Positions 1,203 to 18,162 of a DNA stretch of 25,128 nt are shown in pieces. The translations under genes were made by a program, and so were the position numbers. This stretch comes from a virus. Lineage: Duplodnaviria > Caudoviricetes. The number at the start of each line of letters is the position of its first letter. Positions within the stretch are counted from its first letter, which is position 1. The stretch covers positions 1-25,128 of IMG/VR virus record IMGVR_UViG_3300032330_000882; one strand, 5' to 3'. The notes under the pieces were generated by a model. That model was not told the DNA's origin. It ran no database searches and worked only from the letters and a program-made list of their open reading frames with translations.

Positions 1203-1247
1203 GGAAACTCCCTGAAGTGCGTAGGCTTCAGGGAGTTTCCCTTTTCT
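1203..1247 (+). terminator. Intrinsic terminator after capsid gene (15-bp perfect stem, loop TGCGTAGG); may also serve the convergent HNH gene
   Basis: GGAAACTCCCTGAAG (1203-1217) / CTTCAGGGAGTTTCC (1226-1240) followed by CTTTTCT. Confidence 0.85.
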
Positions 1248-1779
1248 TACGCCATTCCATAATGGTCAAGTCACGCTTTTGACTATTACAAGATTTACAA
1301 GCACTGACTAAATTGCCGATTGAATCACGGCCACCACGAGCCACGGCAATAACATGATCTACAGTTAGTCGCTCAGTTGCGCCACAGTAAAAGCAAGGTG
1401 TTTGGCTAAGTTTCAAAAGTTCTTTTTTAGTTATCTTGAAAATTCCGTTGGCTTTCCGTCTAGCATTTCTGCGCCTAGTATTAGCGGCAATTGCAAGGTG
1501 ATTTCTGCGTTTTGAAATTGCCATATATGCTGCATGGCGTTCAGGATTTTCGGCAATGCGTTTATTGGCATAGGCGATTCGCTTATCACGATTGCGATGG
1601 TAATTATCGGCTTGTTGAATGGCAATGTTTTTTGCTTGCCTAATTCGATAAGCAGCTCTGGCTATGCGCCGGCAGGGTTGGCATTGGCTGTAAAGGCCAT
1701 CAGTCGTTTTGGTGTGTTTGCCAAATTCTGTTCTTGGCAAAAGTTGCTTGCATTTTGAACAAGCCTTAGTATTGGACAA
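1228..1779 (-). CDS. Free-standing HNH endonuclease with N-terminal zinc finger
   Basis: CSKC..DGL..QCQPC N-terminal Zn finger; CFYCG..TVDHVIAVARGG..NLVSACKSCNSQK HNH domain; preferred start TTG 1779 (SD AGAAAGG 8 nt upstream), longest ORF starts at 1806. Confidence 0.92.
   Translation of the reverse strand: MSNTKACSKCKQLLPRTEFGKHTKTTDGLYSQCQPCRRIARAAYRIRQAKNIAIQQADNYHRNRDKRIAYANKRIAENPERHAAYMAISKRRNHLAIAANTRRRNARRKANGIFKITKKELLKLSQTPCFYCGATERLTVDHVIAVARGGRDSIGNLVSACKSCNSQKRDLTIMEWRKKRETP
1744..1772 (+). promoter_or_regulatory. Putative antisense promoter inside the HNH 5' end
   Basis: TTGCTT (1744-1749) - 17 nt - TAGTAT (1767-1772). Confidence 0.55.
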
Positions 1780-1840
1780 TCGAACTACCTTTCTTAGTTT
1801 GGTCATGCCCCTGGATGTTTCCGCATCGCAGGGGTTTCTC
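1779..1840 (+). ncRNA. Predicted cis-antisense RNA to the HNH leader and RBS
   Basis: Hairpin ATCGAACTA/TAGTTTGGT (G-U pairs only on this strand) with anti-SD loop CCTTTCT, then GC-rich hairpin 1807-1835 and TTCTC; promoter at the expected distance. Confidence 0.55.
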
Positions 1841-2449
1841 CTATCTTATAGCCTCGATTATGCGTGTCAGTAGCCTGTTCAGGTATTGGTGGCTCATGTC
1901 ACCGATGGCTAATACTTCATCGTGATCTAAACGGGTCGGGCTTATTCCTGCAGCTTGGTTTGTGACTAGCGATAAGCCAAGAACTTCCATGCCTAGTTCT
2001 TTAGCAGTAATGGCTTCTAGCGCTGTGGACATTCCCATTAGGTCTGCTCCGAAACTGCCAGCCATTCTTACTTCTGCCGGTGTTTCGTATTGTGGGCCAC
2101 GGAACTGGGCATAGATTTCTTCTGGTAGTGGCTCAATGTTTTGCACTATTTGGCGTAGGCGTTGGCTGTATGTGTCGCTCATGTCTACAAAGTTTTTGCC
2201 GGTTAGTGGGCTGTGGCCGGTGAGGTTTATGTGGTCGCTTATTAGGCAGACTTGACCTGGCTTGTGTCGTATTGATCCGGCGGCGTTTGTCAGGATTAGG
2301 GTTTCTACTCCAAAGTATTTGGCTTGGCGTATCGGGTCTGCTACGGCATCAATCCCTAAACCTTCATAAAGGTGTGTGCGTGGGATGATGCGTACATCAT
2401 CATTTTTGTATGTCCAGCCTGAGCCTAAAACTAACCCTATTTTCTTCAT
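1841..2449 (-). CDS. punA: Purine nucleoside phosphorylase (trimeric inosine/guanosine type), internally shortened
   Basis: Motifs LVLGSG, RTHLYEG, LTNAAG, ISDHINLTG, GPQYETPAEVRM, GADLMGMST, SLVTNQAAG, DHDEV; ATG 2449 lies 6 nt after TAGGCT (leaderless). Confidence 0.93.
   Translation of the reverse strand: MKKIGLVLGSGWTYKNDDVRIIPRTHLYEGLGIDAVADPIRQAKYFGVETLILTNAAGSIRHKPGQVCLISDHINLTGHSPLTGKNFVDMSDTYSQRLRQIVQNIEPLPEEIYAQFRGPQYETPAEVRMAGSFGADLMGMSTALEAITAKELGMEVLGLSLVTNQAAGISPTRLDHDEVLAIGDMSHQYLNRLLTRIIEAIR
1843..1848 (-). promoter_or_regulatory. Putative -10 box (TAAGAT) for the HNH gene, in the PNP 3' end
   Basis: TANNNT hexamer about 7 nt upstream of the structured HNH leader. Confidence 0.45.
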
Positions 2450-2510
2450 TGTCACAGCCTATAAAAGTGCGTGGTTTTTTAGTAGTCTTTTATTACTACG
2501 AGAGGTAAAA
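2450..2510. promoter_or_regulatory. Divergent promoter region between PNP and glycosyltransferase operon
   Basis: Minus-strand TAGGCT (2461-2456); plus-strand TAGTCT (2483-2488); RBS GAGAGG before ATG 2511. Confidence 0.55.
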
Positions 2511-3731
2511 ATGGGTAAATCTGGAAATCCGGCTAAGGCCAACGCTAAGAAACTTCAGGGCATTGTTTCTTGGTTTAGTAATTCTGCGACTGCTCCTACT
2601 GGCTACGGTATGCAGTCTGCTCAGGTTCTAAATCGGTTTATTCGTGATGGACTTGATGTTGCCGTGTTGTCGAACTATGGGCGTGAAGGTGTCAATGGAA
2701 CTTGGGCGAGTGATTATGGTGTTGTGCCTGAGTATGCTCGTGGTGCTGAACCTTATTCACAAGATGTGACACCGCTGAATCATCAGCATCATGTGGCCAG
2801 CGTAGAAAAGAAGAAGGGCAAGCTGCCTAATGTTCTGATTACGCTTTACGACACTTGGATTCTTCGTGGGGAAAAGTACAAGGAACTAAACATTGCTTCT
2901 TGGACACCGATTGACCACACTCCTGTTCCACCGCTAGTGCTTGACTGGTGTAAGCGTGAAAATGTAACTCCGATTGCTATGAGCCGTTTTGGTCAGGAGC
3001 AGTTGGCTAAGTATGGTGTGGAATCTGAGTATGTGCCGCACGCTGTCGAGCCGGTATTTCAGCCTACTTTTGTGGTGAATGGTATGGATGTTCGCGAGTA
3101 CATGGGCATCACTAAAGACAACTTCCTAGTGGGTATGAATTTTGCTAATAAGGCTTCTGGTGCGATTCACCGTAAGGCCATCGCTGAAGCGTTTTTGGCG
3201 TTCAGTATTTTCGCTAAAGACAAGCCGGAGGCTGTGCTGTATTTGCACACCGATATGTTTGGGGCTTTTGGTGGGTGGAAGTTAGACCACCTTTTGACCT
3301 CGTGTGGTTTGAAGAAAGAACAGGTGATTTTCTGTGATCAGGTTGCGTACCGTTACGGCTACTCGCAGGAAGAATTGGCGGCCTTTTATACGGCTATGGA
3401 TGTTTATTTGGGTGTTTCTTATGGGGAAGGCTTTGGGGTTGGCACTATCGAAGCACAAGCCTGTGGAACACCGGTAATTGTTTCTAACATTTGTGCATCA
3501 CCTGAACTTGTTGGCGATGGCTGGGTTGTTGAGTGTCAGCCGTTGTGGGATGAAGCTCAGAAGTCTTGGTTTAGTGTGCCTAGTATTCCGCAGATTGTGG
3601 CAGCTCTGGACGAGGCGTATAAGTTGCCGCGTGGTAAGTCTGAGCGTGCGATTGAGTTTGCTAAGGGCTATGGTGCTGAGGCTGTCTATCAGAAGTATTG
3701 GTTGCCTGTTTTAGCGAAAATTCTAAAGTGA
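2511..3731 (+). CDS. Glycosyltransferase, GT-B fold (GT4-like)
   Basis: PTGYG N-terminal motif; MDVYLGVSYGEGFGVGTIEAQACGTPVI (EX7E); start reassigned to ATG 2511 on RBS evidence. Confidence 0.93.
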   Translation: MGKSGNPAKANAKKLQGIVSWFSNSATAPTGYGMQSAQVLNRFIRDGLDVAVLSNYGREGVNGTWASDYGVVPEYARGAEPYSQDVTPLNHQHHVASVEKKKGKLPNVLITLYDTWILRGEKYKELNIASWTPIDHTPVPPLVLDWCKRENVTPIAMSRFGQEQLAKYGVESEYVPHAVEPVFQPTFVVNGMDVREYMGITKDNFLVGMNFANKASGAIHRKAIAEAFLAFSIFAKDKPEAVLYLHTDMFGAFGGWKLDHLLTSCGLKKEQVIFCDQVAYRYGYSQEELAAFYTAMDVYLGVSYGEGFGVGTIEAQACGTPVIVSNICASPELVGDGWVVECQPLWDEAQKSWFSVPSIPQIVAALDEAYKLPRGKSERAIEFAKGYGAEAVYQKYWLPVLAKILK

Positions 3732-4375
3732 TTCCGATTCTTGGCTTTTGTACTCTGAAACGGTTTGACCTTGCGGAACGGCTTCTACGATCTATTGATT
3801 ATCCTGTTGAGCATTTGGTTATTGTCAATAATTCTGGAACACGCACCTGGCAACCTGTAAAGCCTGACCTTGTAAAAAACTTGTGGCACATCGAAGTACC
3901 GTTTGGGCTTGGTCTTGTGGGTGCTTGGAATCTGATTGTGAAGTCCACGCCTTATGCACCGTATTGGGTGCTTGTGAATGATGATGCTTGGTTTGAACCT
4001 GAGCAGATGAAGAAGATACCTGAGCAGGTAGATACTCAGGCATTGAACTTTCTGGACATCGTGCCTCAATGGTCTGCCGTGGTTTTCGGTGAGGGCATGG
4101 TGGACAAGATTGGTCTTTATGACGAGAATTTTTATCCGCTGTATTTCGATGACAACGATTTGGAACGCAGGGTGGATTTGGCAGGTATAGACAAGAAATC
4201 TATACAATGCAAAATGGGTCACGACAACAGTTCTACGCTTCATAGCGGCTTCACTACGGTCAATGGTAGAAGTTACTCTGCCAATGGTGCGTTAGCCTCT
4301 CTACGAGCCTCACAAGGGCTTACAACAGCGTTTCCGTGGGAACTCAAAACTAGAAGGGCAAATAGATGGGATTAG
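3728..4375 (+). CDS. Glycosyltransferase, GT-A fold (GT2-like)
   Basis: LVIVNN, GLVGAWN, LVNDD, IGLYDENFYPLYFDDNDLERR; GTGA overlap with upstream gene. Confidence 0.88.
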   Translation: MIPILGFCTLKRFDLAERLLRSIDYPVEHLVIVNNSGTRTWQPVKPDLVKNLWHIEVPFGLGLVGAWNLIVKSTPYAPYWVLVNDDAWFEPEQMKKIPEQVDTQALNFLDIVPQWSAVVFGEGMVDKIGLYDENFYPLYFDDNDLERRVDLAGIDKKSIQCKMGHDNSSTLHSGFTTVNGRSYSANGALASLRASQGLTTAFPWELKTRRANRWD

Positions 4376-4782
4376 TTGTCTATACGGGTGGAACTTTCGA
4401 CCTGTATCACAGCGGTCACGCAGCTTTTCTTGAGCGTTGTGCAGAACTCGGCTCAGTCGTAGTCAGCCTGAACACCGATGAATACATTGAGTTGTATAAA
4501 GGCACTGCACCGGTCATGTCTTTTGCCGAGCGTAAAGCAGTTTTGGAATCTGTGCGTTGGGTGGATCAGGTTGTGCCTAACATTGGCGGTCACGATTCGA
4601 CACTGGCCATCGAACAAGTAAAACCTGACCTTGTTGTAATCGGTTCGGATTGGGCTAGGCGTAACTATTACGGGCAAATGTGTTTCGACCAAGACTGGCT
4701 TGACGAGCGTGGCATTGGTCTTGTGTATCTGCCTTATACTCAAGGGATTTCTTCCACGGAGATAAAGACCCGTCTGCGATAA
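4366..4782 (+). CDS. Cytidylyltransferase-family nucleotidyltransferase (TagD/RfaE-II-like)
   Basis: YTGGTFDLYHSGH (HxGH), ERKAVLESVRWVD, GSDW, YTQGISSTEIK. Confidence 0.92.
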   Translation: MGLVVYTGGTFDLYHSGHAAFLERCAELGSVVVSLNTDEYIELYKGTAPVMSFAERKAVLESVRWVDQVVPNIGGHDSTLAIEQVKPDLVVIGSDWARRNYYGQMCFDQDWLDERGIGLVYLPYTQGISSTEIKTRLR

Positions 4783-4809
4783 ACTGGAAACACCTATTTA
4801 GGAGTTTTT

Positions 4810-5418
4810 ATGGCAATCACTAACGGCTACTGCACACTTGCAGAAGTTAAGGCTTCGCTAAGAATTAGCGACAGCGTAGATGACACATTGCTGGAGTTGG
4901 CTGTGGAATCTGCAAGCCGTAGCATTGACGAGTTCGCAGCTCGTGTGTTCTACTCAATCGGCACAGCCGTCAAATACTTTGCCGCTGACACTGATGAGTA
5001 TGTTCGCATTGATGACCTACTGACCATCACTGAACTGAAGACTGATGACAACGGAGATAGCACTTACGGCCAAACCTGGTCTTCGACTGACTACCAGTTA
5101 GAACCGCTAAACAACTCGTATCCGGTAGATGGTGTGATTTCACCGGTCACTGCGATCCGTGCAAGAAACACCAAATACTTCCCAATTCTGAACGGTCAGG
5201 CTCTAGTCAAAGTCACCGGCACTTGGGGTTACAGTTCAGTACCTACCGCCATCAAACAGGCAACCGTCATTCAGGCAGCTCGTTACTTCAAACGCAACGA
5301 TTCACCTCTAGGTGTTTTGTCTGCACCTGACCTCGGCTACATTCGTGTCGGCTCACGCCTTGACCCTGATGTGGAAATGATGATTAGCGGTTACCGCCGA
5401 GTTGCTGGTGTTGCCTAA
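4810..5418 (+). CDS. Head-to-tail adaptor/connector protein
   Basis: YCTLAEVKASL..DDTLLE..ASRSID and WGYSSVPTAIKQA motifs; position; RBS AGGAG; upstream TAAACT at 4780-4785. Confidence 0.85.
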   Translation: MAITNGYCTLAEVKASLRISDSVDDTLLELAVESASRSIDEFAARVFYSIGTAVKYFAADTDEYVRIDDLLTITELKTDDNGDSTYGQTWSSTDYQLEPLNNSYPVDGVISPVTAIRARNTKYFPILNGQALVKVTGTWGYSSVPTAIKQATVIQAARYFKRNDSPLGVLSAPDLGYIRVGSRLDPDVEMMISGYRRVAGVA

Positions 5419-5825
5419 TGGCGAACATCACTGACCTCCGCACCGGCATAGCAACTAACTTAGCCACGATTACTGGGTTGCGTACTGGTGCGACTATTCC
5501 CGAAAATGTTTCCCCACCGTATGCGATTGTTGCACCGTCAGGTATTTCTTACCATCAGTCAATGCGTAACGGAATGAGTACCTACAACTTCACCGTTACT
5601 CTCGTAGTAGGTCGTGCCGATGCACGATCATCGCAGAACGCTCTTGATGCTTACTGTGGAAGCACTGGCTCTAGTAGTATTAGAAGTGCAATCGAATCTG
5701 ACCGCACACTAAGCGGAAAAGCATTTGATTGTGTGGTAACTGGCATGAGAAATTATGGCAGTATCTCTATCGGCGATAACACATACCTGGCAGCCGAATT
5801 TGATTTGACTGTTCAGGCTGATTAA
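5418..5825 (+). CDS. Tail terminator / neck protein
   Basis: Size and position between adaptor and tail tube; AIESDRTLSG motif; TAATG coupling. Confidence 0.7.
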   Translation: MANITDLRTGIATNLATITGLRTGATIPENVSPPYAIVAPSGISYHQSMRNGMSTYNFTVTLVVGRADARSSQNALDAYCGSTGSSSIRSAIESDRTLSGKAFDCVVTGMRNYGSISIGDNTYLAAEFDLTVQAD

Positions 5826-5839
5826 GTAAAGGAAATCAA

Positions 5840-6247
5840 ATGGCAAAATTTGTTGCTACTGATTACTCAATTACCCTGAACGGCACTGACCTAAGCTCAT
5901 CGCTTCAGTCTGTAAACCTCACCATTCAGAGTGATGAAGTAGAAACAACTACCTTCGGTGGCGGTTGGAAGACTATGGTTGGCGGATTGAAGTCTGGTTC
6001 AATCCAGTTGAACTTCTTCCAGGATTTCGCAGCTGGTTCTGTGGATGCCACACTCTGGCCACTCCTCAACACCATTGGTACTGTTGTAATCAAGCCAACT
6101 AGCACTGCTGTATCGGCAACAAACCCGTCATACACAGTTCTTGCGCTTGTGAGCCAACACCAACCATTCGCATCATCAGTGGGCGATGCAGCTACACTTT
6201 CAGTTACTTGGCCAACCTCTGGCACAGTAACTCGCGCTACTGCCTAA
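5840..6247 (+). CDS. Major tail (tube) protein
   Basis: 135 aa Thr/Ser-rich beta protein (EVETTTFG..GLK, NPSYT, SVTWP); strong RBS; precedes chaperone. Confidence 0.85.
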   Translation: MAKFVATDYSITLNGTDLSSSLQSVNLTIQSDEVETTTFGGGWKTMVGGLKSGSIQLNFFQDFAAGSVDATLWPLLNTIGTVVIKPTSTAVSATNPSYTVLALVSQHQPFASSVGDAATLSVTWPTSGTVTRATA

Positions 6248-6280
6248 TCAGTCAGTAGTACATAACTAAAAAGGAAACAA

Positions 6281-6535
6281 ATGAAACTGAACCTACGCGC
6301 AGAATTTCTTGATGGCCGTGTCATTGATCCAGTAGTGGTTCAAATGCCGGAAATGTTGAAGTTTGAAGAAAAGTTTTCTGTGAGTGTGACTGTTCTTGAG
6401 AAGGAACAGAAACTTACTTACATCGCGTTTCTTGCTTGGGCTGCTCTAACCCGTCTGAAGCAAACTGCTTTGTCTTACGAGGAATTTGTGGACACTGTTA
6501 GTTCTATCGGAGCGAGTGACGCAGACCCAAAATAA
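6281..6535 (+). CDS. Tail assembly chaperone (gpG-like)
   Basis: Follows tail tube; ends at slippery C CCA AAA TAA. Confidence 0.8.
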   Translation: MKLNLRAEFLDGRVIDPVVVQMPEMLKFEEKFSVSVTVLEKEQKLTYIAFLAWAALTRLKQTALSYEEFVDTVSSIGASDADPK

Positions 6536-6684
6536 AACCGCTGGGTGAGAGTTCGATGCATTGGATTCTTGCTCAGATGGCGGTTGAAACTGGTATTGCT
6601 CCTAGTGTGCTTGCTAATGAATCGCCAAGAATGTTGTGGACTATGTATCGGGTTCTTGTAGCTCGTAACAATCCACAGGAATAG
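6526..6684 (+). other. Programmed -1 frameshift site and 50-aa extension (gpGT-like)
   Basis: X XXY YYZ heptamer CCCAAAA 6526-6532; -1 frame open: IKPLGESSMHWILAQMAVETGIAPSVLANESPRMLWTMYRVLVARNNPQE, stop 6684 just before a terminator. Confidence 0.8.
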
Positions 6685-6685
6685 A

Positions 6686-6720
6686 AAAAGACCCTAGCCA
6701 ATCGGTTAGGGTCTTTTCTT
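6686..6720. terminator. Bidirectional intrinsic terminator
   Basis: AAAAGACCCTAGCC / GGTTAGGGTCTTTT with A and T tracts, between convergent genes. Confidence 0.85.
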
Positions 6721-6730
6721 TATCCGGCAA

Positions 6731-7138
6731 CTACTGGGGGCTGAGTTGCTGGAAGCCTGTTAGTCGGAAGTTTGGGTTTTGTAATACTGCACCACAGGCA
6801 AGGTCAAGCATCTGCTGGACTTCTTGTGCGCTGAACCGTGAGTGGGCAATGCAGTATTCAAATTCTTCTGTGCTGGTAATGGCGTTGTATGCCAAACGCA
6901 CGACTAGGCGTTGCCAATCTTCGTTGTCATGTGGAATGTGACCCTGCTCAATAATGACCAAAGCGGCTTCGTATTTGTATTCATCTGTTAGTTGATCTGC
7001 TAAGTCATGGTCGTATTTACCAATTTCATCCCAAATAACATATTCGCTGTTGCACCAGTTTTCACCGGCAAGCATTTTTTTAGCAGTGGCATTGACAGCA
7101 TCCTGGTAGGTGATGTCTAGTTCTTTGTAAATTCCCAT
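6731..7138 (-). CDS. Hypothetical acidic protein, reverse-strand insert in tail module
   Basis: 135-aa ORF, RBS GAAAAGGG, own promoter and terminator. Confidence 0.8.
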   Translation of the reverse strand: MGIYKELDITYQDAVNATAKKMLAGENWCNSEYVIWDEIGKYDHDLADQLTDEYKYEAALVIIEQGHIPHDNEDWQRLVVRLAYNAITSTEEFEYCIAHSRFSAQEVQQMLDLACGAVLQNPNFRLTGFQQLSPQ

Positions 7139-7182
7139 TAGTTTCCCTTTTCTAGTTGGTATACAAAATCTTGCGAGTTAAC

Positions 7183-7260
7183 TTATTTCTTTTTGCTTCT
7201 TTTAAGGTGCTTACGCTGGCGAGCCTTTGCCTTATGTGTAGGCCAAAAAACTTTGTTCAT
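7183..7260 (-). CDS. Possible 25-aa basic peptide MNKVFWPTHKAKARQRKHLKRSKKK
   Basis: First ATG ORF after the minus-strand promoter and leader hairpin; AGAAAG about 12 nt upstream (weak spacing). Confidence 0.35.
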   Translation of the reverse strand: MNKVFWPTHKAKARQRKHLKRSKKK

Positions 7261-7288
7261 TCTGGTAAATCACTTTCTACTGGTTATA

Positions 7289-7385
7289 TCGGCTTTTGCC
7301 GAGTATGTCCATAATGCCACGGCTGAGCCGGATAACGCAACATTTCAGATAACGAGTTGATAACGGTGGCGGTAGAATTGAAGGC
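7289..7385. promoter_or_regulatory. Divergent promoters with GATAACG direct repeats
   Basis: Minus: TTGCGT (7340-7335) - 18 nt - CATTAT (7316-7311), leader hairpin 7289-7302; plus: TAGAAT 7373-7378, 7 nt before ATG 7386; GATAACG at 7331, 7348, 7359. Confidence 0.65.
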
Positions 7386-8015
7386 ATGGCCGATGACTTG
7401 AAACTTACTGTTGCTACTTTTAGCGGTGGTTTAGGCCGTTCCGGTGTAGGCACTAACGATTTCAGTGTTCAAGATGTGCGTGAACTAAACCGTAGGTTGA
7501 GGGCTATTGAGCCTCGACTAAAAACACAATTAGTTAGACATTTGAAGCAAATCGCCAAACCATTAGAATCTGACATAAAAAGTTCGATTGCTAGTGTCGA
7601 GCCGATATCTGGAATGTTGAAAGACCGTGGCCGTTTAGGTTGGGGAGTTGGTGTAAGGCCAGATAAAACACTGATTCAATATAGAACTTCTGCTGGTAGT
7701 AAATCGCTAACAACTTCTTTGGTCAGGATTAAGGTGACATCGCCTGGAACTGTTTTGGCTGACATGGCTGGTAGATCAGGGCGTTACATTGGTCAAGGTC
7801 GCAGAAATGATAATGCTTCACCTACGCTCAAACGGCGTAATGCAAATCAGGCCAAAGGTGAGGCGTTTATTCGTAGCCTTAATGAGAATGTTGGCGATGG
7901 TTCAGCTTCCCGATTTATCTGGCCAGCAGCTGAACATAGTATTCCAGCAGTTCGATTGGCCATTGAAAATGCCATGAGATTGGCTTTTGATTTCGTAAAC
8001 ATGAGAGGGCTATAA
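7386..8015 (+). CDS. Putative HK97 gp10-like tail completion/neck protein
   Basis: Basic; VRELNRRLRAI N-terminus and SRFIWPAAE C-terminal motif; abuts tape measure. Confidence 0.6.
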   Translation: MADDLKLTVATFSGGLGRSGVGTNDFSVQDVRELNRRLRAIEPRLKTQLVRHLKQIAKPLESDIKSSIASVEPISGMLKDRGRLGWGVGVRPDKTLIQYRTSAGSKSLTTSLVRIKVTSPGTVLADMAGRSGRYIGQGRRNDNASPTLKRRNANQAKGEAFIRSLNENVGDGSASRFIWPAAEHSIPAVRLAIENAMRLAFDFVNMRGL

Positions 8016-10421: not shown

Positions 10422-11650
10422 TGGCACTTCCAGTCGAAAAGGTTGAACTTGGTTTTGATGCTAATGGGCCAGGTAACTTCTTCACGCTCGATGACACTGT
10501 AAAAGGTGTGCTTGACAACATTGACTTCGTGCTTTCGGGTGCAAGCAACTTCTACGATGTTTCGGCTTATGTGCAGTCAATCAATGTGAGCCGTGGTAAG
10601 TCCCGTGCGTTAGATCGTTACAACGCTGGACAGGTCAGTGTGACCTTCGACAACCGCAACCGTTACTTTGACCCTACCTATACGGCTTCACCGTTCTATG
10701 GGCAGATTGTCCCTCGTAGAGATGTGCGTATCTGGTCTAACGGCGTAATCGTGTTCTATGGTACGACTGAAGACTGGAATTTGGACTATTCGCCATCGGG
10801 TGAAAGTACCGCTACTTTGTCTGCCGTGGATGGGTTCGCGTTCTTGGCTCAGCAGACTTTGACGGCACAAACTTACACTTCACAGTTGTCTGGCTCTCGC
10901 GTGTCTGCGGTCTTGGATGATGCTTCTGTGGCTTGGCCTTCTGCTCAGCGTTCGATTGATGCCGGTGATGAAACATTGCAAGGTGATGCTGTGACGTCTG
11001 CTGATAATGCGTTGCAGTATCTCCAGCAGATTGAAACTAGCGAACCTGGTGAGTTGTTTATTGCCAAGAATGGTGATTTGCGGTTTATTGCTCGTAACTC
11101 AGTATCAGCTTCTTCAGGTGTTCCGGTGTTGTCTGATAACGGCACTGGTATCAAGTATTCGCAGGTTCGTGTTGTCTACGGATCAGAGTTGCTTTACACA
11201 CAGACTGAGTTGAGCCGTAAGGGTTCTTCGACAGTCGTGCAAGTAAATGACACTTCAGCACAGGCCACTTACGGTATCCGTACCTTGTCTGAAAATGAAT
11301 TGCTACTAAATAGCGATGCTCGTTTGGCTGAGTTCGGTAACTATCTTCTAGGTCAATACAACGCACCCGAATACCGTTTCGACCAAGTAGATGTTCTGTT
11401 TAGTCAGTTATCTACAACAGACCAAAACACTTTGTTAGGGCTTGAACTTGGTTCGATTTGTCGCGTGGACTTCACACCTAACGGCATTAGTCCAGCAATC
11501 AGCAAATACGGGCGAGTAATCGCAATCAATCATCAAGCATCACCGATTGAACACCGTATGACTATCGGTCTAGGTACGCTCGTAGGTGCGACCTTCGTGC
11601 TAGATGACTCGGCGTTTGGTATCCTAGACACAGGCATACTTGCCTTCTAA
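10421..11650 (+). CDS. Minor tail protein (distal tail/hub)
   Basis: Directly after tape measure (TAATG); SINVSRGKSR..FDNRNRYFDP motif; similar F(T/V)LDD..G(V/I)LD motifs at both ends. Confidence 0.75.
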   Translation: MALPVEKVELGFDANGPGNFFTLDDTVKGVLDNIDFVLSGASNFYDVSAYVQSINVSRGKSRALDRYNAGQVSVTFDNRNRYFDPTYTASPFYGQIVPRRDVRIWSNGVIVFYGTTEDWNLDYSPSGESTATLSAVDGFAFLAQQTLTAQTYTSQLSGSRVSAVLDDASVAWPSAQRSIDAGDETLQGDAVTSADNALQYLQQIETSEPGELFIAKNGDLRFIARNSVSASSGVPVLSDNGTGIKYSQVRVVYGSELLYTQTELSRKGSSTVVQVNDTSAQATYGIRTLSENELLLNSDARLAEFGNYLLGQYNAPEYRFDQVDVLFSQLSTTDQNTLLGLELGSICRVDFTPNGISPAISKYGRVIAINHQASPIEHRMTIGLGTLVGATFVLDDSAFGILDTGILAF

Positions 11651-11665
11651 CTTTTAGGGAGATTC

Positions 11666-12196
11666 ATGGCTGGCTCAGGCTGGAGAACTTTCACCGCTGG
11701 TGCAGTTTTGACTGCGACTCAGGTACAGAACTATTTGCAAGATCAGACCGTTCAGGTTTATGCGACAACAGCAGCTCGTTCATCTGCTCTTGGTACTGCC
11801 GTTTCGACTGGTATGGTTTCGTTTGTTACCGCTACTGAGGGTCTTGACCTTTACACTCACGGTGTTTGGACTGGTATCAACTATTCGACCATTACTAACG
11901 GCACGACTACTGCCTACACTGCGACTGCAAGTGATGCGAATACTACTTTTGTGGCAAGCAACGCTTCAGCACAAACAATCGTGATTCCTGACTTGTTTGA
12001 CATTGGTGAGCGTCTGGACATTATCCGTGATGGTGCTGGTACTGTTTCGATTTCGGCTGGTACTGGTGTGACGACTTGGGCTGGTGCTGGTACTGCTGGA
12101 ACGGCTAAATCGTTTGCTATGGGTACACAGTATTCGGCTGCTTCGGTTATCAAGGTTGCGGCTAACTCTTACCGTGTTATTGGTGCGGTGGCGTAA
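11666..12196 (+). CDS. Minor tail / tail fibre base protein
   Basis: FTAGAVLTATQVQNYL N-terminal motif; Thr/Ala/Gly-rich. Confidence 0.7.
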   Translation: MAGSGWRTFTAGAVLTATQVQNYLQDQTVQVYATTAARSSALGTAVSTGMVSFVTATEGLDLYTHGVWTGINYSTITNGTTTAYTATASDANTTFVASNASAQTIVIPDLFDIGERLDIIRDGAGTVSISAGTGVTTWAGAGTAGTAKSFAMGTQYSAASVIKVAANSYRVIGAVA

Positions 12197-12753
12197 TGTC
12201 GCTTATGCCTTTGGGCTTATTGTCGCAGGGTGGTGGTGCTGGGGCTGGTGGTAATGCGCTAACTTTGATTAGCACGACACTTTTATCTTCGGCTGCTGCT
12301 TCGGTCACTTTCAGTTCAATAGTAGGCACATATAAACATCTCCAAGTCAGGTTCACTGCACGATCCGCTTCTGCTGGTGGTGACAATGTTCGTATGCAAA
12401 TAAATGGTGATACTGCAAATAATTATGCTGTTCATTACCTAATAGGTGATGGAACGATTTATTCTGGTAATGCCGTTCCGTGGAATACTTCGGTTTATTC
12501 CCCTACCGCAAGTGCAGCTTCAGCCGCAAACATTTGGTCTGCTGGAATTATTGACATTCTTGATTACAGTCAAACTACAAAAAACAAAACTATTAGAACT
12601 TTTGGCGGTAAAGCAATTAGCGGTGATAACAATATTCATTTACAGTCTGGTGTTTGGTTGAATACGTCCGCCATCACTTCTTTAACTGTTTATATGGGTT
12701 CAGGTTCAAACATTGCTGCTAATAGTCGTGTCAGTCTTTATGGGGTGAGCTAA
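12196..12753 (+). CDS. Tail-tip protein, paralog 1 of 3
   Basis: VTFSSI..TYKHLQ / IDILDYS..TKNKT / WLNTSAITS / SLYGV. Confidence 0.65.
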   Translation: MSLMPLGLLSQGGGAGAGGNALTLISTTLLSSAAASVTFSSIVGTYKHLQVRFTARSASAGGDNVRMQINGDTANNYAVHYLIGDGTIYSGNAVPWNTSVYSPTASAASAANIWSAGIIDILDYSQTTKNKTIRTFGGKAISGDNNIHLQSGVWLNTSAITSLTVYMGSGSNIAANSRVSLYGVS

Positions 12754-13239
12754 ATGCCGTCAGCGTTAGTACCTTTGGCAAACATTACTTTAGGATCACC
12801 AGCAGCGAGTATTATATTTTCATCTATTAGTGGTTCTTATAGAGATTTGATGCTTGTTATATCATCTGCACCAGGTGCAAACGGCTATGCGATGTATATA
12901 TCTTTCAATAGCGATACAACAAATGCTAATTATTCATCAATATTAATGACTGGTAACGGTTCATCTACTAGTAGTGGTACCCAAACATCGCAACCTAGAG
13001 CAATCGCAGGTGAGGGTTATGTTTATCCATATCAAAAAATTATTCATTTGATGGATTATTCTGCAACTGACAAACACAAAACTTTCTTGGCTAGAACTGA
13101 TGGGGCAAACGATAGTACTCAAGCAATTGTTACAAGATGGGCTAACACGGCTGCGATAACAAGTATTGCATTTGCTTTGTATGGCGGTAACAATATGGCT
13201 GCTGGAACTTCTATGGCTCTTTATGGGGTGTCTGCCTGA
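12754..13239 (+). CDS. Tail-tip protein, paralog 2 of 3
   Basis: IFSSISGSYRDL / MDYSATDKHKT / WANTAAITSI / ALYGV. Confidence 0.65.
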   Translation: MPSALVPLANITLGSPAASIIFSSISGSYRDLMLVISSAPGANGYAMYISFNSDTTNANYSSILMTGNGSSTSSGTQTSQPRAIAGEGYVYPYQKIIHLMDYSATDKHKTFLARTDGANDSTQAIVTRWANTAAITSIAFALYGGNNMAAGTSMALYGVSA

Positions 13240-13754
13240 TGACTTATGGAACTCTTATTAGCAGCGTAACTGTTGGGGCTGGTGGGGCTTCGAGTATCGA
13301 CTTCACTTCAATTCCTGCAACTTATACAGATTTGTGTGTTGTTTTATCGGCTAGAAGCAATGCTGGTGACAATGTTGCCTATTTTCGAGTGAATACTGCA
13401 ACAACATCATTCTCGCAAAAATTTTTGATGGGAACAGGTGCATCGGCGGTAAGCGGTTCAGACACACAACTTTATGTGCCAGTCAGCAACTCAGGACACA
13501 CAGCCAACACTTTTGGCAACACAATTATTTATATTCCAAATTACACATCATCGGCGAATAAAACATTTAGCATTGACGGTGCAAATGAAAATAACTCAAC
13601 TGATGTAAGGCATCTAATTGAGGCTGGTTTGTGGAGTAATACTGCCGCAATTACATCAATTCAAATTCCTTGTCCTGGTGGGTCATTTGTGCAATATTCA
13701 ACGGCATACTTGTATGGCTTGTTAAAAGGATCTGGTGGCGCAACAGCCGCCTAA
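13239..13754 (+). CDS. Tail-tip protein, paralog 3 of 3
   Basis: DFTSIPATYTDL / IPNYTSSANKT / WSNTAAITSI / YLYGL. Confidence 0.65.
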   Translation: MTYGTLISSVTVGAGGASSIDFTSIPATYTDLCVVLSARSNAGDNVAYFRVNTATTSFSQKFLMGTGASAVSGSDTQLYVPVSNSGHTANTFGNTIIYIPNYTSSANKTFSIDGANENNSTDVRHLIEAGLWSNTAAITSIQIPCPGGSFVQYSTAYLYGLLKGSGGATAA

Positions 13755-13769
13755 TAGATAGGAAAACAA

Positions 13770-14006
13770 ATGACTACTACTCCAAAAAAGATTATTGTGG
13801 ACTGCTCTACTGGTGAAACCACCGAGGTAGAACTTACAGCACAGGAAATCGCTGATTTGGAAACTGCTCGCGCACAAGCAGAAACTGAGCGTCAGGCTCG
13901 TGAAACCGAGGAAGCCCGTATTGCGGCTCTAAAGGATTCTGCTAAGCGTAAACTCATCGCCGGTGAGAAACTTACCGCCGATGAAGCTGCTCTCCTTATC
14001 GGCTAA
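13770..14006 (+). CDS. Small tail-associated protein (possible fibre chaperone)
   Basis: RBS AGGA; DCSTGE..ELT..EIA followed by coiled coil; last gene of tail module. Confidence 0.6.
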   Translation: MTTTPKKIIVDCSTGETTEVELTAQEIADLETARAQAETERQARETEEARIAALKDSAKRKLIAGEKLTADEAALLIG

Positions 14007-14057
14007 ACTAGACAAGTACTCGCACCGATCTACGCTCGGTTTATTCTTTAGGGCTTT

Positions 14058-14276
14058 ATGGAATCGGAACAAATACCTCAGTGGGCTATCGAACTCATCA
14101 AACAGGTTGAGCGTTTGAATGAGAAAATTCCTACACATGTTGAGTGGGTTGAACGCAACATTAAAGACCATGAGTTGCGTCTACGACAGCTTGAGCAGTT
14201 TAAGTGGGTTTTGGTTGGTTTGGCTTTGGCTTCCGGTGGCGTATCGGCAGCAATTATGAAAGTGATTGGGGCATAA
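14058..14276 (+). CDS. Membrane-anchored coiled-coil lysis-module protein (XhlA/holin-like)
   Basis: DHELRLRQLE coiled coil plus a C-terminal TM helix; precedes endolysin. Confidence 0.6.
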   Translation: MESEQIPQWAIELIKQVERLNEKIPTHVEWVERNIKDHELRLRQLEQFKWVLVGLALASGGVSAAIMKVIGA

Positions 14277-14277
14277 G

Positions 14278-14745
14278 ATGGCTCAGATGCAGTATTTTGA
14301 TCCGTTTCCTGGAAACCGTGGCGACGAACTAGGTAACATGGCTTCTTACCGTAAGCACCCTCACCGTGGGAGCGATTGGGGAGCGAAAAAGGGCATTGAG
14401 AAAGCTGCTATCAAGGCGATCACTAATGGTCGTGTAAAAAAGATTTTCTGGTCAGATATTCTAGGTCACTGTTTGGTGCAGTCTTCAGGTGATGGCATTA
14501 ACTGGCTTTATGCTCACCTAGCTGAGAAGCCAACTATGGAACTTAACAGCCTTTTGGTTGGTGGGGAAACGGTGATTGGTCATGTTGGCGGTGGCAAGAA
14601 CACTCCATCTGGATCAGCCTCGACTGGCGCACATCTTCACATGGCTGGTGCTGCTGGCACTTTGGATGTTCACCTAGCACCGTATGAGAAACTGGTGGAT
14701 GTTCACAAGCACATAGATGCCAACATAAAGCCAGTTCAGGGTTAG
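14278..14745 (+). CDS. Endolysin, M23 family metallopeptidase
   Basis: HRGSD (HxxxD), YAHL, STGAHLH (HxH). Confidence 0.88.
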   Translation: MAQMQYFDPFPGNRGDELGNMASYRKHPHRGSDWGAKKGIEKAAIKAITNGRVKKIFWSDILGHCLVQSSGDGINWLYAHLAEKPTMELNSLLVGGETVIGHVGGGKNTPSGSASTGAHLHMAGAAGTLDVHLAPYEKLVDVHKHIDANIKPVQG

Positions 14746-14754
14746 AATAAGGCT

Positions 14755-15042
14755 ATGTCTAAAGAAACTATGAAAAGCCGCCTACGAGCCGTATACGGCG
14801 TTTTAGGGGCTATTGTCTGGCGTGGGTTTGGACTGTTTTTGTTTATTCTTGGTGCTTCAGCTGGTACTGGTGCAGTCGTAGTCGGTAACTGGGTGACTGG
14901 TGTGCTTATCGCCTGGTTTACTTTGATGCTCGGAATTGTTGGGGCTGTTGGCTATGCGATTGCTGTTACTGGCAAGGTAGATGTTGCTGATGTGGCTAAG
15001 GCTTCACAGGATGCTGTGCAGAAGGCCACTGAAAAGAAATAA
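14755..15042 (+). CDS. Putative holin (two TM segments)
   Basis: Two hydrophobic stretches with charged termini; after endolysin; TAGAAT 6 nt before ATG. Confidence 0.6.
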   Translation: MSKETMKSRLRAVYGVLGAIVWRGFGLFLFILGASAGTGAVVVGNWVTGVLIAWFTLMLGIVGAVGYAIAVTGKVDVADVAKASQDAVQKATEKK

Positions 15043-15333
15043 TCAATTCGCTGATCTGTCTTTAGGGGATAAGCCTCCCCAAATGCCATAAGGCTGATTA
15101 CTTGCTATCGCATAATCCCTGCACATAATTAGCAGTGGGCATTGTTTACAAAGTGACTTCGCTAAGCGTTCGGCCATTGTTATCATTTCGTAATCTGTAA
15201 CACGGCCATCTTGTAAAGTTCTGCCGTAATCTTCAGGGAAGAACAAATCTGGACTGTCTTGACAAGGTGAACCGGTTTCTTCCTGCTTTTCTATTAAGCG
15301 GAAGTACATTGATTCGTTTTGTCGGTGGCTCAT
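15043..15333 (-). CDS. whiB: WhiB-family Fe-S transcription factor
   Basis: C..DLFFPE..AKSLCKQCP....C..YA..YGIWGG. Confidence 0.93.
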   Translation of the reverse strand: MSHRQNESMYFRLIEKQEETGSPCQDSPDLFFPEDYGRTLQDGRVTDYEMITMAERLAKSLCKQCPLLIMCRDYAIASNQPYGIWGGLSPKDRSAN

Positions 15334-15367
15334 GATGTACTAACACTAACCGTTGAAAGGGTAAAAA

Positions 15368-16240
15368 TTGGCAGTGTTTTTAGGTAATTATGAATCGGGT
15401 TCAGCCGAGTGGCTTGAGCTGCGTGAAGGTGCTGGTGTTGTTACTGGCACTTTGTTTGGCACTATTTGTGGGCTGAATCCGTGGGAATCGGCGTTTACTG
15501 CTTGGGCTAAGGCCACAGGGAAAATTCCGAATGAGGTGCGTAAGTCACGGCCTATGCGTTTAGGTCAGTTGTTGGAATCACCTATTAGGCAGATTTGGTC
15601 TGAGGAAAACCCTGAGTACCTGGTTGAATATGATCTAGGCACTTGGTCACATGATGAATACGACTGGGCTAGGGCTAACCCTGATGGGTTCATTACTTAC
15701 CCTGATGGCGTGAAGGGTATTTTGGAAATCAAGACTGCTCGTGTGCCATTCGAGGAAGTTCCGGCACATTACAAGGCTCAGGTGCTTTGGTATATGTGGG
15801 TTTTTGGTTTGCGCCGTGCCAAGCTCGTGGCTTTGTTTAGTGGTAACGATTTGCAGACTTTTGATATTGAGTGGGATGCTTTTGAGTTTCAGGCAATGTT
15901 TAGCCGTGTAATGGTTTGGCGTGATCATGTGCTGGAGGAAAAGAAACCTGAATGGGATGGGTCGGCTTCGACTTATGAAACCGTCAAGGCTCTCAATACT
16001 GGTGCTAACGATACGGCTATCGAATTGGGTGATTTGGGTGTGCATTTGTCTAACGCTCAGTCTGATTTGGATAAGGCCACCGAAAATTTGACAAAATTGA
16101 AAAGCATTACTCTCGACAATTTGGGTGATGCTAAGTACGGTTATGTTGATGTAAATGGCGAGCAGGTGAATGTGGCTGTTCGTTCCGTAAATAAGAATGG
16201 CATCGTGTCATTGACAGTAAAGAAGGGTAAAAATGTCTAA
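15368..16240 (+). CDS. YqaJ-like (lambda exonuclease family) recombination nuclease
   Basis: SAEWLELR, NPW, GQLLE, ANPDG, LEIKT, YKAQVLWYM; TTG start with RBS GAAAGGG. Confidence 0.9.
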   Translation: MAVFLGNYESGSAEWLELREGAGVVTGTLFGTICGLNPWESAFTAWAKATGKIPNEVRKSRPMRLGQLLESPIRQIWSEENPEYLVEYDLGTWSHDEYDWARANPDGFITYPDGVKGILEIKTARVPFEEVPAHYKAQVLWYMWVFGLRRAKLVALFSGNDLQTFDIEWDAFEFQAMFSRVMVWRDHVLEEKKPEWDGSASTYETVKALNTGANDTAIELGDLGVHLSNAQSDLDKATENLTKLKSITLDNLGDAKYGYVDVNGEQVNVAVRSVNKNGIVSLTVKKGKNV

Positions 16241-16427
16241 GGAACTATGGGAAGACAACTTGGCTTTGTGGGAAACACAAGACAAGATGAACGAGTTGCA
16301 CTCGCAGCGTATTGACCAACTAACGGAGGCGGTCAAGCAGTTGAGTGAAGTGTTGGCTAAGGTGCTTGTGGCTGATAAGGCTATTTGTACTGGTAAGCAT
16401 TGCAAGTGTGGGAAGGTGGCTCACTAA
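16233..16427 (+). CDS. Hypothetical protein
   Basis: 64 aa, RBS AAGGG, overlaps both neighbours. Confidence 0.7.
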   Translation: MSKELWEDNLALWETQDKMNELHSQRIDQLTEAVKQLSEVLAKVLVADKAICTGKHCKCGKVAH

Positions 16428-16918
16428 TGGCCAGATTTGATTTGGACTCGTACGAGACGGTAGATAGCCGTATAAAGCGTTTCATGGCTGACTGGCCTAA
16501 TGCTCGTCTATTGACCGAGATTGTTGATGCTCAGGGCGAACCTGGCAAGACCCGTTGGATTGTGAAGGCTAGCCTTTGGCGCGAACGCACCGATGGCGAA
16601 CCGGATGCTACTGGATTTGCTTTTGAGGTTGATGGATCAGGAATGGCCAACCAAACCTCGGCTCTTGAAAACGCTGAATCGTCAGCTCGTGGCCGAGCAT
16701 TACAGGCTCTCGGCTATACCGGTGCTAAATCACCTAGCCGTGAAGAAATGGAAAAGGTTGCCCGTTCTAGGGATTGGCTAGGCGAGGCTGATGCTCTAGC
16801 TCTTGTCTACAATGTCGAGGGTTTGCGACTACTTTACGCAGATGCTGTGGCGGCCAAAGTAGATAAAGAAACATTGGCTAAAATCAAAGACTATGGAACT
16901 AACGCTGCAAAACCGTAG
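16427..16918 (+). CDS. Putative single-strand annealing protein (Rad52/Sak-like)
   Basis: YETVDSRI..ALENAESSARGRAL..SREEM motif; downstream of exonuclease; TAATG start. Confidence 0.6.
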   Translation: MARFDLDSYETVDSRIKRFMADWPNARLLTEIVDAQGEPGKTRWIVKASLWRERTDGEPDATGFAFEVDGSGMANQTSALENAESSARGRALQALGYTGAKSPSREEMEKVARSRDWLGEADALALVYNVEGLRLLYADAVAAKVDKETLAKIKDYGTNAAKP

Positions 16919-17096
16919 GATTTTGATGGCTTCGATGCTTGAATTGCAACAGGCCATTGATGAAGCGTATTTGCGGTCTGACTTGTCTTCGATGGCTAGT
17001 CTTATTCAGTTACAGAATGAAAGGGTGAATCGTCTTGACAATTTTGACACCAGATTTGGTGAACGCGGAACTGCAACGGATAATTCAGGAGAGTAG
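16893..17096 (+). CDS. Hypothetical protein
   Basis: 67-aa ORF bridging neighbours in a tightly packed operon. Confidence 0.5.
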   Translation: MELTLQNRRILMASMLELQQAIDEAYLRSDLSSMASLIQLQNERVNRLDNFDTRFGERGTATDNSGE

Positions 17097-17373
17097 CAAA
17101 GCACCTCAAGCCATTTATGAGGCTGAGAAGAAATTGGCTGAGGCTGAGTTTGCTTATGAGCGTGAGAAGGCTTTGCAGTTTATGAACGCTGAGGGTACGG
17201 TTGCTGATCGTGAAGCATTATCTAAGTTTCAGTCTTCTGAGCTGCGTTTGGCCGCTGACATTGCTAAGGCTGAACTTAACCGTGTACGGTCTAAGGCTAA
17301 ACAGTTGGCTGATGCCGGTATTTTGACTGCGACTTTGGCTAAGTCTGTTGAGATGACTTATCGCAATGGGTAA
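17035..17373 (+). CDS. Coiled-coil hypothetical protein (possible recombination mediator)
   Basis: Helical, GTVADREA motif; start uncertain. Confidence 0.65.
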   Translation: MTILTPDLVNAELQRIIQESSKAPQAIYEAEKKLAEAEFAYEREKALQFMNAEGTVADREALSKFQSSELRLAADIAKAELNRVRSKAKQLADAGILTATLAKSVEMTYRNG

Positions 17374-17491
17374 GCGTGTCTGGTTTATTTGGTGTGACCG
17401 TTGTGAGTACGGTGGGATTAGGCGTGGGCGGTTTGGTTTGTTCAAGTGTCGTATGGGTAAGCATTTTGTCAAGTCGAAAATTTGGACATGA
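17366..17491 (+). CDS. 41-aa Cys-containing protein, not in ORF track
   Basis: MGKRVWFIWCDRCEYGGIRRGRFGLFKCRMGKHFVKSKIWT; fills the gap, ATGA overlap with next gene. Confidence 0.55.
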   Translation: MGKRVWFIWCDRCEYGGIRRGRFGLFKCRMGKHFVKSKIWT

Positions 17492-17700
17492 CTATTAGCG
17501 AAACTTGTGGCAACTGTGGGTCTTCTTTTGAGATTGACCGCACTGATGAAGTTACACTTTGGCGTGATTGGCAACGCAATCATTTATGTAAGACCACCGA
17601 AAAGGCAGAGTTTTTTAGTTCGCCTAACACGGTAGTTGAACAGTCTGAATCGAAACTTGGTTTTACTCGTAGCACTCAGTTTGATGATCCAGATGAATAG
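17488..17700 (+). CDS. Small zinc-binding hypothetical protein
   Basis: ETCGNCG..W..W..HLC; ATG 17488. Confidence 0.65.
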   Translation: MTISETCGNCGSSFEIDRTDEVTLWRDWQRNHLCKTTEKAEFFSSPNTVVEQSESKLGFTRSTQFDDPDE

Positions 17701-18046
17701 GGCAACATTCGCTAAGTATCTGGAACGGGATAAACGCTGTTGGCATTGTGGGTCTGATGGCGATGACCTGATTCCGCATCACAGGGCTAATCGTGGGCAT
17801 GGTGGGGCTGGAAAACAGTCAATACTGAATCAGCCGTCAAACATTATCCTGATGTGCAGTCAGGCTAATTTCCTGATGGAGCATGATGCCGAGTTTGCAG
17901 CTCGTGCCAGGTTGTTTGGTTGGAAGATAAGCAGATACGCTGACCCTGCTACTGAACCTGTCTATGATTTGAACAAAGCTGTTTATTGTATTTTGACAAA
18001 CGACTTTGTACGAGTAGAGTTACACAACTACCGAGGAACTGCATAA
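17693..18046 (+). CDS. HNH-like nuclease (recombination-module type)
   Basis: RDKRCWHCG..PHHRANRG..SNIILMCSQAN; ATG 17693. Confidence 0.75.
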   Translation: MNRATFAKYLERDKRCWHCGSDGDDLIPHHRANRGHGGAGKQSILNQPSNIILMCSQANFLMEHDAEFAARARLFGWKISRYADPATEPVYDLNKAVYCILTNDFVRVELHNYRGTA

Positions 18047-18048
18047 GG

Positions 18049-18162
18049 TAGAATTGAAAGAAGAACGGCCACAGTGCATGGAAACCCTGTGACCGCTCAA
18101 AACCAGTAAATGAGCTACTGGCAACAACAAGTTTATATGTTGCCGGAGAAAGATGGCAACAA
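18049..18162 (+). promoter_or_regulatory. Promoter and structured leader of GIY-YIG/replication operon
   Basis: TAGAAT 18049-18054; TGTTGCC 18138-18144 can pair with GGCAACA at 18120-18126 or 18155-18161. Confidence 0.6.
18056..18122 (-). ncRNA. Predicted cis-antisense (countertranscript) RNA
   Basis: Minus promoter TTGCCA (18159-18154) - 18 nt - TAAACT (18135-18130); hairpin CCAGTA/TACTGG; 12-bp terminator stem GAGCGGTCACAG/CTGTGGCCGTTC, fully paired only on this strand, followed by TTCTTTC. Confidence 0.6.

Follow-up and report, generated by a model that had tools for sequence, protein, structure and literature searches.

Two predicted antisense RNA modules in the leaders of phage endonuclease and replication genes, and their likeness to P22 sar

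Closest described antisense RNAs

Two short antisense RNAs were predicted in the 25-kb virus record IMGVR_UViG_3300032330_000882, a tailed phage with capsid, tail, WhiB, YqaJ, replication initiator, DnaB-like and RusA genes; the whole stretch of 25,128 nucleotides is referred to as the window. Locus 1 lies before an HNH endonuclease gene, and locus 2 before a GIY-YIG endonuclease gene followed by a replication initiator gene. Each locus is probably a cis-antisense control module of the kind known as sar in phage P22, and, judged from sequence and fold, the loci are two separate families (type 1 and type 2, respectively) with a common layout. The WhiB gene and the relatives described below point to an actinobacterial host of this phage.

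The sar RNA (RF00262) blocks translation of the antirepressor gene ant by pairing (PMC13397905; here and below, papers are cited for their accessible parts). The likeness to sar was checked on the P22 record. The ~68-nt sar RNA starts opposite the ant start codon, carries an anti-Shine-Dalgarno (anti-SD) sequence in its 5' loop and ends in a terminator with a GUU-ACC-GC loop; the TATACT box of its promoter is located at ant bases 7-12 (codons 3-4). Type 1 is likewise a two-hairpin RNA antisense to the ribosome-binding site (RBS) of its target, with the anti-SD in the 5' loop and the -10 box within the first target codons. The 5' loop is 7 nt in type 1 and about 16 nt in sar; type 1 also has a fixed CAY linker and a bulged G, and its targets are free-standing actinophage nucleases, whereas sar acts on ant. 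Type 2 is unlike sar in that an anti-SD was found in only 8 of 21 RNAs and the Shine-Dalgarno sequence lies outside the RNA.

The same terminator loop as in types 1 and 2 is present in lambda OOP (GUU-GCC-GC) and P22 oop (GUU-CCC-GC), short cis-antisense RNAs just upstream of a replication gene; oop is also the best match of the models of both types in P22. The pairing region of OOP is the 3' end of cII/c1 (PMC5869508), whereas the type-1 and type-2 RNAs face a 5' leader, and OOP is aligned to the type-1 model without a 5' hairpin. The likeness to sar and OOP may reflect deep homology or convergence. In plasmids, countertranscripts (ctRNAs) such as those of pT181 and repABC control rep. Type 2 resembles these in its place before a replication initiator, within the leader, and it may work via the alternative leader hairpins predicted from its folds. 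The consensus of ctRNA_pGA1 (RF00236) has a similar terminator loop; the differences are the phage context and the GIY-YIG gene that often stands between leader and rep. No plasmid ctRNA family of Rfam matched at locus 2 (E<=5) or in the related loci L094 and L102 (E<=1).

Control of endonuclease-type genes is exemplified by IS10 RNA-OUT and SymR. The homing endonucleases of T4 are controlled by cis leader hairpins and late promoters (PMC2988022); in the Eco29kI system, intragenic antisense promoters are present, and antisense silencing of the restriction endonuclease is needed for establishment (PMC3113576). All four systems share with the mechanism proposed for type 1 that a nuclease is kept untranslated by a hidden RBS. 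Unlike type 1, the T4 and Eco29kI systems are not described, in the accessible parts of these papers, as a shared portable RNA family. An expressed 'Sar RNA' antisense to its neighbours was reported from a prophage region of Mycobacterium mucogenicum, as a single case of low homology (PMC6582537); from this partly accessible source, it can be likened to type 1 by description only.

The preliminary description of the two loci had suggested a possibly undescribed RNA family, and no Rfam family was reached. The best RF00262 match in the window (1809-1833) reached 7.5 bits (E 4.6), against a cut-off of 43 bits and 97.8 bits for P22 itself; at E<=5, the Rfam scan of the window had no match at locus 1 or locus 2. 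Scans of another 40 loci, including 38 of type 1, matched neither sar nor any other relevant family, and five weak RF00262 loci that were checked are not matches of the type-1 model. No description of the type-1 or type-2 families was found in the partly accessible literature, although the family may be among the 10,000 candidates of Fremin 2023 (PMC10690425), where the short motifs were not found in the searched part of the supplements. The accessible part of the Minerva preprint has no mention of the element, and the literature, as far as accessible, no mention of a link between the GUU..GC loop of types 1 and 2 and sar or OOP. The preliminary description had overlooked that P22 sar and the OOP RNAs of lambda and P22 have this layout and a looser form of the loop.

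The type-1 element and its nuclease targets

The features of locus 1 are as follows.
1228..1779, minus strand: HNH endonuclease gene with a zinc-finger N-terminus (PF01844, Pfam E 6e-13), target of the type-1 antisense RNA
1744..1772, plus strand: candidate antisense promoter inside the HNH coding sequence (CDS), -35 TTGCTT at 1744-49, 17 nt, -10 TAGTAT at 1767-72 (CDS bases 8-13)
1779..1843, plus strand: predicted type-1 antisense RNA, two hairpins and a U-rich tail, covering the HNH RBS
1843..1870, minus strand: candidate sense promoter of the HNH gene, CTGACA-16-TAAGAT (scanner), overlapping the end of a phosphorylase gene

The start codon of the HNH gene is most likely the TTG at 1779, since its relatives align from residue 10 and begin at that codon. 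The antisense promoter was identified by eye and was not listed by the promoter scanner; its boxes (TTGCTT..TAGAAT/TATACT) are retained among the HNH relatives. The predicted RNA starts with a 9-bp hairpin (1779-1803), whose 7-nt loop CCUUUCU (1788-94) is an anti-SD. It is followed by the 3-nt linker CAU and a terminator hairpin (1807-1835) with a bulged G and a G-UUUCCG-C loop. The fold of 1779-1845 has -24.6 kcal/mol (z -4.8; 0/200 shuffles as good), and z is -2.9 on the sense strand. Of 20 loci that have an HNH relative, 19 possess the module, one of these being the window's own sequence; it is absent from a 28%-identical one. Among these relatives the stems change in pairs, and the terminator loop varies (UUUCCG, UUUCUG, UUGCUG, CUGAUUA, UUUGUG). 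An upstream open reading frame (ORF) from the ATG at 1806 in the linker was rejected as a conserved feature, as its frame and presence vary.

A DNA pattern of the outer terminator stem, derived from locus 1, gave at least 120 matches in viral contigs, with 110 distinct loci among the matches listed; in genomes it also gave at least 120, mostly from Streptomyces among the 80 matches listed. A covariance model (R1) built on 63 sequences matched 87 places in 99 further loci and gives locus 1, which is in its training set, 56.3 bits. R1 matched ten places in one Streptomyces genome and none in two other genomes, and 10/151 genomes in the genus of L449 (Mycobacterium sp.). Clear copies (61-71 bits) were found in the cultured phages LilSpotty, Malisha and REQ2. 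LilSpotty gene 83 (L560 599-1306) has its annotated start ~155 bases before the one that the element implies, and so appears to be annotated through it. In L015 (~3645) and L196 (~1556) the module before the HNH gene is intact and ATC or ATT replaces the start codon, which may be decay, unusual starts or assembly error.

The position of the antisense -10 box is conserved within unrelated coding sequences. An antisense TANNNT at CDS base 8 was found in 95 of the 109 viral type-1 loci with an assigned start, versus 1.5% in same-frame windows further in; of the 33 gene starts in the window only one, that of the HNH gene itself, has it. A sense TANNNT lies 5-28 nt upstream in 72/110 loci, versus 6% of control windows. 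The 5' loop has an anti-SD-like run in 62/63 and 75/85 RNAs of two sets, and is 7 nt long in 45/63. In the type-1 alignment (A4), which was fitted to R1 and has four invariant pairs fixed by the search pattern, 96.7% of cells are paired and 13 of 19 pairs have changes on both sides, which none of 500 shuffles reached; in the 5' hairpin, double changes were found in 5/6 pairs.

The downstream proteins of at least 60 aa from 80 long type-1 loci (74 proteins) were assigned with Pfam and then PHROGs. Pfam gave 29 HNH, 9 HNH_3, 11 endonuclease VII, 5 GIY-YIG-like, 2 NUMOD3 and 1 LAGLIDADG-like domains, 57/74 targets thus being nuclease-type, and left 17 blank. PHROGs on 16 of these gave nine nucleases, one replication initiator, two unknown families and four blanks, so that 66/74 targets are nuclease-type by both together. 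None of the 74 is called an antirepressor.

A type-1 leader was also found on ten GIY-YIG loci among 100 searched with R1. At one genomic position, between the same two neighbours, homologous GIY-YIG genes carry type 1 in L089, L092, L095, L099, L119 and L128, type 2 in L023, L025, L026, L090 and others, or neither. The same gene can thus have either module, and the earlier proposal of a portable module before unrelated nucleases and replication genes is upheld. Three type-1 copies occur within 5.5 kb in L103, and both types occur together in the window, L091 and L368.

In the mechanism proposed for type 1, the promoter in target codons 3-5 would fire an RNA of ~65 nt that starts opposite the start codon, displays the anti-SD in its 7-nt loop and carries a terminator of its own at the end. 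By pairing with the 5' leader of the mRNA for the nuclease, it would prevent ribosomes from loading; duplex degradation and promoter interference may contribute to the repression. As a single unit of ~100 bp comprises the promoter, the RNA and the leader, it could be re-used before many unrelated free-standing endonucleases, and it might silence them in prophages or when infection is at the wrong stage.

The target spectrum also bears on another explanation, namely that nuclease and unstable antisense RNA form an addiction or abortive-infection cassette like a type I toxin-antitoxin system. The layout fits such a system, 89% of the tested type-1 targets are nucleases, up to ten copies occur in one Streptomyces genome, and the establishment role of antisense silencing in Eco29kI is a parallel (PMC3113576, accessible part). 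However, the same modules also lead replication initiators and non-nuclease genes (L239, L294, L351, L368, L533-L536), and this explanation is considered unlikely.

In that Streptomyces genome, the genes behind the ten type-1 copies (L533-L542) are mostly short and unlike nucleases in appearance, and one presumably resembles a serine recombinase by its first residues; targets outside phages are therefore broader. Directly upstream of the module in the window is a purine nucleoside phosphorylase-like gene (PF01048; 1841-2455, minus strand). It was found at this place in the window and an identical contig (L003), and in 0/18 other HNH loci; it is likely a recent gain of an auxiliary gene.

The type-2 element in replication leaders

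The features of locus 2 are as follows.
18049..18054, plus strand: candidate sense -10 box TAGAAT of the GIY-YIG/replication leader (by eye)
18055..18122, minus strand: predicted type-2 antisense RNA, 5' hairpin 18122-18102, UUU linker, terminator hairpin 18098-18063 with GUU-UCCAU-GC loop, U-rich tail
18120..18160, plus strand: three-way repeat GGCAAC (18120) / GTTGCC (18139) / GGCAAC (18155), mutually exclusive hairpins of the mRNA leader
18130..18159, minus strand: candidate antisense promoter of the type-2 RNA, TTGCCA-18-TAAACT (scanner)
18162..18782, plus strand: GIY-YIG endonuclease gene (PF01541, Pfam E 1.5e-7); homologues start at MENT
18782..19474, plus strand: replication initiator, O-like, with helix-turn-helix (PHROG 270, E 2e-23), start overlapping the GIY-YIG stop

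A second in-frame ATG of the GIY-YIG gene is located at 18153, and another sense promoter (score 10/12) at 17993-18020. The RNA folds (18122-18049) with -30.6 kcal/mol (z -5.9 on the antisense strand versus -2.5 on the sense strand). A length of ~60-65 nt and a 7-nt 5' loop had been given for both RNAs. These values suit locus 1; whereas the locus-2 RNA is ~68-70 nt long, and its loop is 5 nt, or 7 nt with the last pair open. The RNA does not overlap the GIY-YIG RBS or start codon.

Aligning GIY-YIG homologues fetched 66 viral and 80 metagenome loci, among which the locus-2 layout is found in fourteen distinct loci; viral scans with the GIY-YIG protein and with the product of the upstream HNH-like gene, each as a single protein, gave no matches. 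A pattern scan added type-2 loci without a GIY-YIG gene, directly before replication initiators. The element is in the leader position of a replication initiator in L294, L351, L359, L368 and L381, immediately before it in L294, L351 and L368, and the initiator is the probable original target of the type-2 leader. The pattern is unspecific: of at least 120 matches about ten are true, and most are chance or an unrelated abundant sequence. This near-identical viral sequence (L290 around 1501-1544, and ~70 similar loci) fits the pattern without having the hairpins.

The type-2 alignment (A3) holds 21 sequences, chosen by pattern and filtered by fold energy. Its cells are paired to 99%, and 15/20 pairs have changes on both sides, a level reached by 0/500 shuffles; the 5' hairpin has double changes in 3/7 pairs. 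The two-hairpin structures described earlier are real, conserved and covarying at both loci. A sense -10 box is at a fixed place in 21/22 type-2 loci, and an antisense (T/C)ANNNT is 5-6 nt before the TGCC of the RNA in 21/22. An upstream ORF from the ATG at 18110 in the loop of locus 2 was rejected as a conserved feature, since its frame and presence vary; ATTGAAAG at 18053, which could be read as CRISPR-like, is not kept in A3.

The downstream hairpin of the three-way repeat covers the purine-rich ribosome-binding region. Relatives have GGCAG/CTGCC/GGCAG repeats (generally GGCA, YTGCC, GGCA). The distances between the repeats vary, as would suit alternative hairpins of the RNA rather than an operator in the DNA. 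In predicted folds for locus 2 of the window, the nascent leader adopts the upstream pairing, and the full leader the downstream pairing that hides the ribosome-binding region. In the mechanism proposed for type 2, the RNA would pair further upstream than in type 1 and capture the first GGCA repeat. With this repeat removed, the hairpin hiding the ribosome-binding region of the GIY-YIG/replication-initiator mRNA would be forced and the off state fixed, a switch comparable to plasmid countertranscripts.

The RBS-covering hairpin in the type-2 leader's own fold would also be expected if the hairpins at both loci were only cis elements of the mRNA leader, for control of stability or translation, and no antisense RNA were made; T4-type endonucleases are under such leader-hairpin control (PMC2988022, accessible part). 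However, the stems tolerate antisense G-U pairs that would be A-C mismatches in the mRNA (G-U versus A-C, 299 to 10 and 81 to 0). This excess and the U-rich tail on the antisense side indicate that the antisense strand is under folding constraint. In addition, the type-1 Shine-Dalgarno sequence is in the loop and not the stem, and the -10 box is at a fixed place inside unrelated coding sequences. A purely leader-borne control is thus regarded as very improbable.

Face-to-face promoters had been reported at both loci, and they were recovered by scanner and by eye, ~70-80 bp apart. This arrangement might also suggest that transcriptional interference or collision is the main effect of the antisense promoter and terminator, with the short RNA as a by-product whose pairing with the mRNA is of little importance. 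In line with it, the ribosome-binding region of type 2 is overlapped by the antisense promoter but not covered by the RNA. Interference alone, however, would not need a covarying 5' hairpin, as seen in both A4 and A3, or a retained 7-nt anti-SD loop; and this explanation is quite unlikely.

Relation of the two families and wider meaning

The preliminary description had regarded both loci as a possible RNA family, with a shared terminator cap GUUUCC-(0-2 nt)-GCA that might be a protein-binding or kissing element. The exact cap does not serve as a family mark: GTTTCC(0-2)GCA occurs exactly twice in the window, at the two loci, but 14/100 shuffles give two or more, and the orthologues of locus 1 have UUUCUG, UUGCUG, CUGAUUA or UUUGUG instead. 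A looser GUU..GC loop is found in 47/63 and 32/84 type-1 RNAs and 15/21 type-2 RNAs, versus 2/129 other terminator-like hairpins of the same loci. In the window, 2/9 terminator-like hairpins have it, both at the flagged loci. In P22 and lambda it is found in 4/60, namely sar, the OOP of each phage and a hairpin that directly follows P22 gene 23 (L562 19649-19709, plus strand) and is not a listed antisense RNA.

Covariation was found at both loci; a cross-match of the covariance models above the terminator background was not. R1 has no match at locus 2 at E<=5 and finds no type-2 element in other loci either. The type-2 model (R2) gives locus 1 13.6 bits, under an ordinary terminator at 14.7 bits; on type-1 elements it gives 12.8-20.6 bits and on ordinary terminators 14.7-23.5 bits, the highest being the terminator downstream of the HNH gene in L005. 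Cross-regulation by pairing is not supported, as the cross duplexes (-34.8 and -38.0 kcal/mol) are at the shuffled level (means -34.3 and -33.3), versus -133 and -145 for the cognate ones. A single homologous family, in which the common loop would serve cross-talk or guide the nucleases, would account for the same layout, for the loop frequencies above and for the three loci in which both types co-occur. In contrast, the 5' hairpins, linkers and targets differ, and the loop is also in sar and OOP; the guide-RNA reading was rejected, as the targets have unrelated folds. This single-family explanation therefore has very little probability.

Several points weigh against cis-antisense control by two sar-like modules. 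The best two R1 matches in 90 kb of P22 and lambda, oop (E 0.09) and sar (E 0.39), speak for the likeness but are weak. The promoters are consensus matches only; the sense -10 box is missing in 38/110 type-1 loci, and the -35 boxes are weak in many type-2 loci. The pairing counts lean upward, because the pattern fixes the outer stem, A4 is model-fitted and A3 is filtered by pattern and energy; the shuffle control for covariation ignores the relatedness of the sequences, and the strand-asymmetry count is based on a structure drawn on the antisense strand. In most loci, the predicted minimum-energy fold of the type-2 leader conceals the ribosome-binding region even when no antisense RNA is present, so that the switch needs a kinetic on-state, which was found only for the window's nascent RNA. 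The GIY-YIG homologues of L024, L036 and L088 are at the same position with neither module directly upstream, and the module is therefore dispensable. In 19/19 relatives the HNH gene occupies the same site, flanked by the capsid and glycosyltransferase genes, which counts against mobility at locus 1.

Between the capsid and head-tail genes of this phage group, two glycosyltransferases and a cytidylyltransferase (2514-4782, plus strand) possibly serve capsid or DNA glycosylation. Strong two-way terminators are located at 1203-1240, after the capsid gene, and at 6674-6757, the latter with weak matches to Yfr10 and to R2. It follows a moron-like 135-aa gene (6731-7138, minus strand) without a Pfam family, on the opposite strand inside the tail region and with this terminator of its own. 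Three consecutive similar-looking tail-region genes (12196-13754, plus strand) have N-terminal motifs in common, and a GNAT acetyltransferase gene (19474-20106, plus strand) lies between the replication initiator and the DnaB-like helicase.

The class of mechanism is old; the breadth, the nuclease targets, the module interchange and the shared loop appear not to have been described before. It might be imagined, though it is rather doubtful, that the GUU-(N2-5)-GC loop acts as a recognition signal common to phage cis-antisense RNAs, both the enterobacterial sar and OOP and the hundreds of copies in actinophages; a host factor for RNA binding or decay could read it, or it could speed up loop pairing. 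In the same scenario, the type-1 unit would be an autonomous ~100-bp regulatory part spreading unrelated toxic nucleases through Actinobacteria, possibly as addiction or abortive-infection cassettes. The loop motif in any case connects types 1 and 2 to sar and OOP. R1 and R2 are two RNA models missing from Rfam, and the type-1 element is a marker for true start codons, for example that of LilSpotty gene 83. The element is present in cultured phages, namely Mycobacterium phage LilSpotty (gene 83), Gordonia phage Malisha (gene 15) and Rhodococcus phage REQ2. How free-standing phage endonucleases avoid harm has mostly been worked out in T4; the present results point to a general answer for actinophages, in which one small predicted antisense unit would be used across nuclease classes.

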